Source: Atractiella rhizophila (lineage: Eukaryota). Taken from it: a stretch of DNA of 42,644 nt. The number at the start of each line of letters is the position of its first letter. Position 1 is the first letter of the stretch. The DNA lies in NCBI GenBank assembly GCA_021432655.1, contig MU271575.1:1-42644 (forward strand), given 5' to 3'. The notes under the pieces were generated by a model. The model was given only the letters and a program-made list of their open reading frames with translations. It did no database searches and was not told the origin of the DNA. This document shows, in pieces, positions 1 through 31,637 of this stretch. Position numbers and translations under genes: made by a program.

Positions 1-540
1 CTACAGGACCATTCACGGCCTTCTTGTCCCCTATTTTCGATACAGATAAGTAAGTATCGGCACCTCTCCTGGAGAAGAAAAGGAGGGACGGACCTGTCAC
101 CTATTTAGATGAAATTGGGAATGATCAGCTAAAATTTTGTGCAATGGTCGTGGAAAGAATATGACGCACATCTCACTCTACGTAGTCTGTTCCCAAGAAA
201 GTCATGTTATTACTTCTCACTTCTATTTGAACTTAAGAAGACGGAAGAGGAGAAAAGACGAACCTGCAACTATCGCATGCCTGGCTCGCTATACCACCCA
301 ATTTATTCCATAGGTCTATTAAGTAAGAGCTGGCTTACCCTACGCGTCGAACACGGTTAACTTGAGCCCAAAAAAAGACAGCGATAAGGAGAAACAAAGA
401 CAACTCACTCTCACCCTCTTCTTCCCCGCTTCCGCCTGAACGGGCAATGGCGCCTGTACCGACACCTGACGCTGTCCTCCCGGGCCAGGGGGAGGCCTAA
501 TCTGAGGTGCAGGTGCTGGTGGTGGTGGAACCTGAGGCAT
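1..540 (-). CDS. Zn(II)2Cys6 (GAL4-type) transcription factor, N-terminal part; gene continues beyond the left edge
   Basis: Splicing exons 540-409, 339, 288-264, 186-170, 100-94 and 30-1 (GT-AG introns 340-408, 289-338, 187-263, 101-169, 31-93) gives MPQVPPPP...AGKKRVRASQACDSCRLRRVRCDRGQEGREWSC, i.e. Cx2Cx6Cx10C preceded by a basic patch. ATG at 540 is the only in-frame ATG of ORF 340..768; a more upstream exon cannot be excluded. Confidence 0.85.
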
Positions 541-27490: not shown

Positions 27491-27864
27491 CTTGTAACAA
27501 TGATATCAATATGAATGTCCTCCCAGTCCCCGAATGGGTGTTGCAAGAGAAAGGTGATGACCCTGACCCTATTGTCGCAAAAATGCCAGACAGACAAACT
27601 TGAAACTACAAATCGAAGGTGAGTGGTTAGCTGGTAGAGCTCAGAGCAGAGAGCAACTCGTCCAAGCGAAATGACACAGGTGGATGGGATATGACTGAAG
27701 GTGTTTCCTTGACACTTCTTATCAGTAAGCTGCCCACCTATTGTTCATTTTCGTATAACATATTTCGATGGAAGAGCAGTGTAAGTGCTAAACTCAGTAT
27801 AGAACGTTTGAGATAAAATTTTGTTCAATATTATGCGAAGCTGTTTCGGAGAGACTTCATCCTT

Positions 27865-30649: not shown

Positions 30650-31637
30650 CTTCACCCAGAATCAATTTGAGCTTCTTAGACAAATATTTCTTACCCAACG
30701 TCAGACTACCGGGGAGAATATTTTAAACTGTGCACAAGACAAACAGGTTCTTGCTTTTATGGCAGCATTGAGAGTAGAATATATGTGCGCGATTTCTTTG
30801 AAGTACGCGTCTCCCCTGAGCACGTGACTGCGGAAGTAAAACAAACCCAGTCCATCAAAGTTTGATGTTATGTTACAGTATGGATGGAACTGATTGAATA
30901 TCTCACCCTGCCTCACTGATACATGACTGTTTTCGACGGCTATCATTGATGATAGAGGAGGAATAATGCAGCAGTGAGAGTTTATCCAGTGACACGGAGA
31001 TTTGCAGGAGAGGGAACCTGATTCAGAGGAAAGTCATGATAAGTAGCTCCCTTGGTTATTACCCGTTACCAGGCGCCGTGTGTATGCGCCTGGCAGGTGA
31101 ATTGGTGTTTATTGCTTTTAAGCAAGTAGTTCGAGTGGCATGTCCATGGATTGCTCATATCACAGATTCCCATTGCCGGAGGTTCAACTTCCTTTATGCG
31201 AACTCGCCGCAGCATTGTGAACTGTGATCGCAAATGCAAATTGCAAGAAAGACCCAGCGCTCAGCGCTGATCTGTCATCTTTTCCGGTCCTACTGGACCA
31301 CTCCTATCCTGCCTTTTCAGACCTTCACATCATTTTCAGCACTCATCGATCAAATTAACCAAATGCCGATATCGATGTTGAAAGCCTCAGTCACGGAAGC
31401 ATACAACTTGAAAGACATCAGTGCTTGTTCCCCGTGGCTCTCCCTCAAACGGTAAAGTTGCCCACAGGTTGCAGTGTATGCATCACGCCGTCCTTAAGCA
31501 ATTGCAATATTTGTTACATGTTTGACCTTCTTTGGTAGTGATACATAAATACGAGGAGCGTGAAAGCAATGAGGAGTCGTTCAGAAGGATGCGACACCAG
31601 AAAATGGAAGACAATTTCGCGAAGGAAAGAAAATCAA

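Follow-up and report, generated by a model that had tools for sequence, protein, structure and literature searches.

Exons of a single nucleotide are already known from plants and fungi. In Arabidopsis APC11, one coding base lies between two spliceosomal introns, is needed for the reading frame, and was missed by annotation (PMC4674806). The same paper, by Guo and Liu, proposes serial removal of the two introns, leaves the order undetermined, and cites a 9-nucleotide exon of potato invertase for which the downstream intron is removed first. Downstream-first removal is also reported by Insplico, for 58% of SRRM4-dependent microexons (PMC10250204). Plant VPS55 has a 1-nucleotide exon, with intron-retention isoforms in some lineages (PMC8831610). 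Among fungi, Fusarium CYP621A has an AG-G-GT core, SRA support and wrong gene models (PMC12940212), and long-read annotation of the basidiomycete Coprinopsis cinerea lists 13 such exons in 13 nuclear genes (PMC12230235). Trichoderma Xlr2 has a micro-exon, missed by gene models, inside its Zn2Cys6 domain (PMC11121469). Finally, stwintrons, of types [D1,2] and [A2,3], are fungal complex intervening sequences, removed in two ordered steps by intron definition (PMC5587772). The locus described here resembles the named systems in the features given, with ordered removal proposed for it.

An earlier note on this locus described one-nucleotide exons as very rarely documented, with APC11 as its example. 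The example holds, but the wording understates the record, given VPS55, CYP621A and the 13 published Coprinopsis exons. Our own conclusion is that a single G, at position 339, is very probably a coding exon of one base, ordinary and mainly constitutive, flanked by two short canonical spliceosomal introns.

Structure of the zinc-cluster gene

The window, meaning the whole stretch of DNA analysed, is 42,644 nucleotides of contig C396 from Atractiella rhizophila, a Pucciniomycotina basidiomycete (51.5 Mb assembly, 1998 contigs). A transcription factor gene of the Zn2Cys6/Fungal_trans type has its 5' end here, at positions 540 to 1 on the minus strand. The first 800 bases of the window have two near-identical copies, on C689 (99%) and C501 (98%), and one diverged match, on C2, which is a paralog. 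Since the locus is present in three near-identical copies (98-99%), and many Zn_clus matches are pairs or triples of identical score, the assembly probably holds uncollapsed haplotypes. The gene leaves the window at position 1; the C689 copy extends past this edge and provides the whole gene. A protein search with one long frame of the C689 copy returned two deposited A. rhizophila proteins, corresponding to the C689 copy and the C2 paralog, and both contain Fungal_trans (PF04082); this middle domain scored 34.8 bits, against a cut-off of 23. The upstream neighbour, at 1189-2977 on the minus strand, is a poly(A)-binding-protein-type gene with three RRM matches and an MLLE domain.

Reading the minus strand, coding exon 1 (409-540) begins with an ATG at 540, encodes a proline-rich start and a basic stretch, and ends in phase 0. 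It is covered by RNA contig 18, and its methionine is also the start of the deposited protein of the C689 copy. Intron 1 (340-408, 69 nt) has a GTGAGT donor, a TAG acceptor and a branch-point-like TTAAC 17 nt from the acceptor; it is retained in RNA contig 17. If it is retained, the acceptor TAG is an in-frame stop, ending the product at 66 aa. The one-nucleotide exon (339-339) follows. This G is the first base of an Ala codon, four residues before Cys1, and is supported by an RNA junction and the paralog. With TAG at 342-340 and GTAAGC from 338, a canonical acceptor and donor surround one base. Intron 2 (289-338, 50 nt; donor GTAAGC, acceptor TAG) is known from an RNA joint.

The remaining exons in the window are also small. 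Joints are given in L005 positions, on the C689 copy; subtracting 8450 gives the window position. The 25-nt exon (264-288) encodes Cys1 and Cys2 and is bounded by two RNA joints; it is also 25 nt long in the paralog, with 17 of 25 bases identical. Intron 3 (187-263, 77 nt) corresponds to an RNA joint from L005 8636 to 8714, which skips 77. The 17-nt exon (170-186) reaches the first base of Cys3, is defined by an RNA joint and a loose contig end, and is absent from the deposited model. Intron 4 (101-169, 69 nt) is placed from the sequence and from this second loose end, behind L005 8482, which we read by eye as joining the 7-nt and 17-nt exons. The 7-nt exon (94-100), of equal size in the paralog, and intron 5 (31-93, 63 nt) are each placed from sequence and RNA. 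Exon 6, with Cys4, starts at position 30 (1-30 in the window), and its remainder was taken from the 99% identical C689 copy.

All five introns are GT-AG. Joining 540-409, 339, 288-264, 186-170, 100-94 and 30 onward gives an open frame, and the six cysteines are complete once C689 sequence beyond the window edge is added (C-x2-C-x6-C-x5..16-C-x2-C-x6..9-C). This zinc-cluster call uses the pattern and a profile of 33 homologs rather than Pfam PF00172. Judged in this way, the spliced product is a Zn2Cys6 (GAL4-type) transcription factor, for which DNA binding is predicted. The earlier note had proposed a zinc cluster assembled from micro-exons. Its boundaries and coordinates are all present in the sequence, and the assembly is supported.

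The gene has 14 joint rows in the RNA contigs. We kept 11 and dropped three, namely two that repeat a kept intron with variant edge letters and one wrongly placed over the 7-nt exon. Lengths of the 11 kept introns are 50-77 nt. Hence, adjacent introns of 69 and 50 nt fit, while a single intron of 116-134 nt would be an outlier. The RNA-verified donors are mostly GTNCGY-like, and all 11 have G at +5. Separately, in 4 of the 14 introns of the gene (L005 6230-8858), the stretch 5-45 nt from the acceptor lacks an NTRAY branch-point-like word.

We considered motif rarity as proof of the one-nucleotide exon and rejected it. The window has 4 instances of the word YAGNGTRAG, where 4.35 are expected, so the motif alone is not above chance. 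At this particular place a chance site is less likely. When both introns must be at least 40 nt, the strict site arises in a fraction of 0.0011 of 20000 shuffles of a 120-nt stretch. For the looser YAG-N-GTNNG the fraction is 0.025, and for AG-N-GT it is 0.15. The equivalent stretch of the C2 paralog gives 0.0031 of 20000 shuffles for the strict site and about 0.025 for the looser one. YAGNGTRAG is also found at 27777-27785 (plus strand) and 30902-30910 (minus strand), with no clear flanking exon structure or micro-exon context.

Protein context was rejected as proof in the same way. Three single-intron alternatives, removing 408-281, 414-281 or 404-289, are also in frame. Of 93 retrieved proteins, 33 have the full zinc cluster, and a profile was made from these. 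The single-intron forms score 53.2 (408-281), 52.6 and 50.5 bits against this profile, and the one-nucleotide form, at 50.8 bits, is third of the four. The suggestion that the one-nucleotide exon alone supplies the usual context of Cys1 is therefore unsupported as an argument. At each of -5, -6 and -7, 23 of 33 homologs have lysine or arginine; the one-nucleotide form fits -5 and -7, the 408-281 form -5 and -6, and these positions are not decisive. Hence, with the motif at chance level and profile scores alike, sequence alone does not choose among the four in-frame forms. The decisive evidence for the one-nucleotide exon is the RNA and the paralog.

RNA across the one-base exon

Three runs contain part of the gene and were aligned to the C689 copy. 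The 5' end is covered by one of them, X3; the others, X1 and X2 (shares 0.10 and 0.06), miss the junction. Note that RNA support thus means one run, from one study and one condition, as assembled contigs and not reads. X3 is judged to be RNA from its contigs, which skip introns of the gene with canonical ends.

In X3, intron 338-289 is precisely removed. The joint, from L005 8738 to 8789, skips 50 letters bounded by CT..AC, and occurs in 2 contigs with a depth of 236. A loose contig end then reaches exon 1, and the 12 letters before L005 8854 correspond to window positions 273-284. If this end is free of gaps, five letters must lie between 284 and 409, namely the remaining four of the 25-nt exon plus one. 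Among five splice models, the one-nucleotide model alone yields the loose end without a gap, and the full gap table of the RNA contigs has no gap at the exon-1 junction. Note that the identity of the five letters, placed on 404-408, is deduced, and that the loose end is one contig, for which depth is not given. Excision of intron 408-340 is likewise deduced from the mature junction, while that of intron 338-289 is seen directly as a joint. The contigs thus read exon 1, one extra base (deduced) and the 25-nt exon in a row, which is what the earlier note had said a junction across 409/288 should contain, and its proposal of a probable exon at G339 is supported.

The same junction bears on readings that dispense with the exon. 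The first has one long intron, from a donor at 408, 414 or 404 to an acceptor at 289 or 281, with AG-G-GT being a chance intron word. Consistent with this, the motif is at chance level across the window, and the deposited protein follows 408 to 289. Against it, the 338 donor is used in RNA, and none of four such models gives the junction; these include the three in-frame forms that the earlier note had named as able to overturn its proposal. Moreover, the 404 donor has no G at +5, which all 11 RNA-verified donors have, and the deposited 408-289 model has to skip another exon as well and is left without Cys1-3. This reading is largely refuted, and we regard it as highly improbable.

A second reading nests intron 338-289 within a larger intron, 408-281, the outer one being spliced to the CAG at 281. 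The protein would be in frame and three residues shorter. This form has an open frame, scores slightly above the one-nucleotide form, and explains where contig 18 ends as well as the joint at 338-289. It cannot, however, yield the loose end, in which window 281-284 lies next to exon 1, and the Ser-Gln codons at 288-281 are kept in the paralog while the introns have diverged. We consider the nested arrangement very unlikely. The acceptor at 281 is 9 mRNA bases downstream of the 340 acceptor and in frame after removal of intron 2. Its product may be a minor isoform, with none among the RNA joints of the runs examined.

In the third reading, the extra G is supplied by a non-canonical cut that removes a single intron (407-289 or 408-290), or it is an untemplated base. 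There is a G at 408 and at 289 too, and the mature sequence alone cannot name the source. Set against this, such a cut needs TG-AG or GT-TA ends, while two canonical introns lead to an identical product, and excision of one of these is observed. The chance that this reading is correct is close to negligible. Our preferred reading is still that G339 is a one-base exon.

Other contig features concern the copies. Contig 18 ends at L005 8858 (window 408), which fits spliced and unspliced forms that share a G after exon 1 and part company one base further on; its unbroken run is a weak hint only. In their variants, contigs 17 and 18 match the C501 copy and not the window copy. The loose end stops beside a difference between C501 and the window, at 272. 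This suggests that the junction is common to both variants.

One other splice word was noted. After removal of intron 338-289, a GC-donor-like word (339 plus 288-284) lies directly behind the 340 acceptor, and its use would lose the 25-nt exon. Splicing of this kind was absent from the X3 contigs, and the word is not kept in the paralog.

The paralog, related genes and their annotation

In the C2 paralog, a phase-0 intron (48 nt) is followed by a lone G, a second intron (61 nt), and exons of 25, 17 and 7 nt, in an open zinc-cluster frame. Alignment of its first two introns with those of the window is no better than for shuffled sequence (79 and 174 of 1000 shuffles reach the score). Introns 3 and 4 do align (0 of 1000 shuffles reach it), and intron 5 is borderline (41 of 1000). 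Hence, the acceptor-G-donor arrangement and the exon sizes of 1, 25, 17 and 7 nt are kept despite diverged flanking introns. Note that the one-base junction of the paralog is predicted from sequence; in its intron 2, only 3 nt separate a branch-point-like CTGAC from the proposed acceptor, and a CTGAC so placed would also go with an AG further on. Across the two introns, the C501 copy differs by 5 substitutions, none of them in AG-G-GT. An X3 contig with a loose end at L005 8075 continues into C2 paralog sequence, which suggests that X3 contains the paralog as well.

A genome-wide pattern for the arrangement matched 4 places, which are the three copies and the paralog, and a reversed control matched none; the pattern was built from these two genes and tells us just that no third gene has the exact form. 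A looser pattern gave 6 matches, against 4 for the reversed control, and three of these are copies of this gene. The match on C210, and one of two near-identical matches on C14, proved on reading not to be zinc-cluster genes.

Of five other family genes inspected in the genome, the paralog is the one that has the arrangement. In three, the basic cluster and the sequence to Cys1 lie in one exon, and another has a different intron, with its upstream part not resolved. Given this distribution, introns 1 and 2 were probably gained in the ancestor of the gene pair, by two insertions or by the split of one intron. Protein searches found close relatives in A. rhizophila only; 92 wider matches have no genomic context. 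A metagenome scan for orthologous loci retrieved 4 loci from 329 candidates, none of them a usable ortholog of another species. They are intron-less bacterial-type genes, which we take to be acylase-like, with just a short peptide in common, and were set aside.

In the deposited protein of the C689 copy, 408 is joined to 289, G339 is skipped, the 25-nt exon is read out of frame, and the 17-nt exon is dropped to regain the frame. The protein is left without Cys1-3, and Pfam finds no Zn_clus in it. This accords with the earlier remark that gene finders miss one-nucleotide exons. The deposited protein of the paralog begins downstream of the zinc cluster. A family gene on C169 (L014 1652-1900) encodes a complete zinc cluster in three exons, and its deposited protein, P0003, starts after it. 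Altogether, among five deposited family proteins examined from this genome, the complete cluster is missing from three (P0001, P0002 and P0003), though encoded in the DNA, and is present in P0004 and P0035. Hence, surveys of intron-rich basidiomycetes probably undercount their zinc-cluster factors.

Splicing order and comparison with known systems

We suggest that introns 408-340 and 338-289 would be recognised by intron definition and removed serially, the downstream one first. Loss of intron 338-289 would fuse the G to the 25-nt exon, making an exon of 26 nt. Intron 408-340 would then leave second, and at no time would the spliceosome have to bind the two sides of a one-base exon together. 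G339 itself preserves the frame for the DNA-binding domain and would be kept by selection on that frame. The order is suggested because an intermediate with intron 2 out and intron 1 in is listed, and the reverse state is absent. In contig 17, intron 2 is out, 38 letters of intron 1 remain, and introns 3 and 4 are also retained. The X3 contigs, which drop rare forms and in which one-base overhangs are hard to place, show no joint where intron 1 is gone and intron 2 remains; this absence is thus weak evidence for the order. So, of the two intermediates that had been proposed as worth seeking, one was seen and the other is not listed. The G was probably joined to the 25-nt exon first.

Two known kinds of complex splicing were rejected as descriptions of the locus. 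A recursive splice site is a zero-length exon, where AG is directly followed by GT and no base is kept. Here, one base lies between AG and GT and is retained in the mRNA. Nor is this a stwintron, since intron 408-340 keeps an intact donor, branch-point-like word and acceptor, and all three lie outside intron 338-289.

If the exon is real, intron 408-340 might also be a regulated switch. Retention, or skipping of the G, would give stop products of 66 aa or 56 aa and turn the factor off, much as in Trichoderma Xlr2. Both events end the frame before the zinc cluster. Thus the earlier statement that skipping would lose the DNA-binding domain is correct, 408-289 stopping after 56 residues. RNA retaining intron 1 does exist, with a summed contig depth of 1537 at one place inside it, and Xlr2 offers a precedent in a sugar-dependent 20-nt microexon of its Zn2Cys6 domain (PMC11121469). 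Conversely, that depth sums overlapping contigs and is unusable as a retention share, and contig 17 retains introns 3 and 4 too, so it looks like a plain intermediate. No skipped (409-288) joint occurs among the X3 contig joints, which cover one condition and cannot show absence. The splicing switch raised in the earlier note thus gained no skipped junction, and we think regulation of this kind unlikely.

A stricter version makes the order an obligatory gate. The downstream intron would have to leave first and the upstream one would be slow to go; by adjusting retention of this upstream intron, with the TAG acceptor as in-frame stop, the cell would switch the regulator on or off. This is unlikely. 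If true, a DNA-binding domain would be under the control of a regulated exon of one base. Our preferred account remains that of a mainly constitutive exon.

How, then, does G339 differ from the systems described at the outset? APC11 is a plant gene, its base is an A, and it has been tested by mutation, whereas G339 rests on RNA contigs and sequence (PMC4674806). VPS55 is also from plants, and proteins are described for both of its forms, while in our gene the frame stops if the intron is retained (PMC8831610). The Xlr2 exon is 20 nt and carbon-regulated, and G339 is known from one condition (PMC11121469). In stwintrons, unlike here, a splice signal is interrupted by another intron; in our gene, one base stays in the mRNA (PMC5587772). 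CYP621A encodes an ascomycete P450, in which the base is the middle one of a Gly codon, within a motif of fixed length, in at least 20 orthologs (PMC12940212). G339, by comparison, is in a basidiomycete transcription factor, is the first base of its codon, lies in a variable stretch, and is known from two paralogs only. Coprinopsis cinerea is an Agaricomycete, and its 13 genes are unnamed in the text consulted, so they may include zinc-cluster members (PMC12230235).

One-base exons are already known. Our literature search, mostly open-access and at title level, and with the Coprinopsis genes unnamed, found none in a Zn2Cys6 gene or in Pucciniomycotina. Within the literature searched, G339 is the first found in either. 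The short list of such exons thereby gains a nuclear, transcript-supported entry that comes from a third fungal lineage and a new gene family. At 69 + 1 + 50 nt, the locus is also a compact natural substrate for studying the removal order of two introns one base apart, a question open since the APC11 paper.
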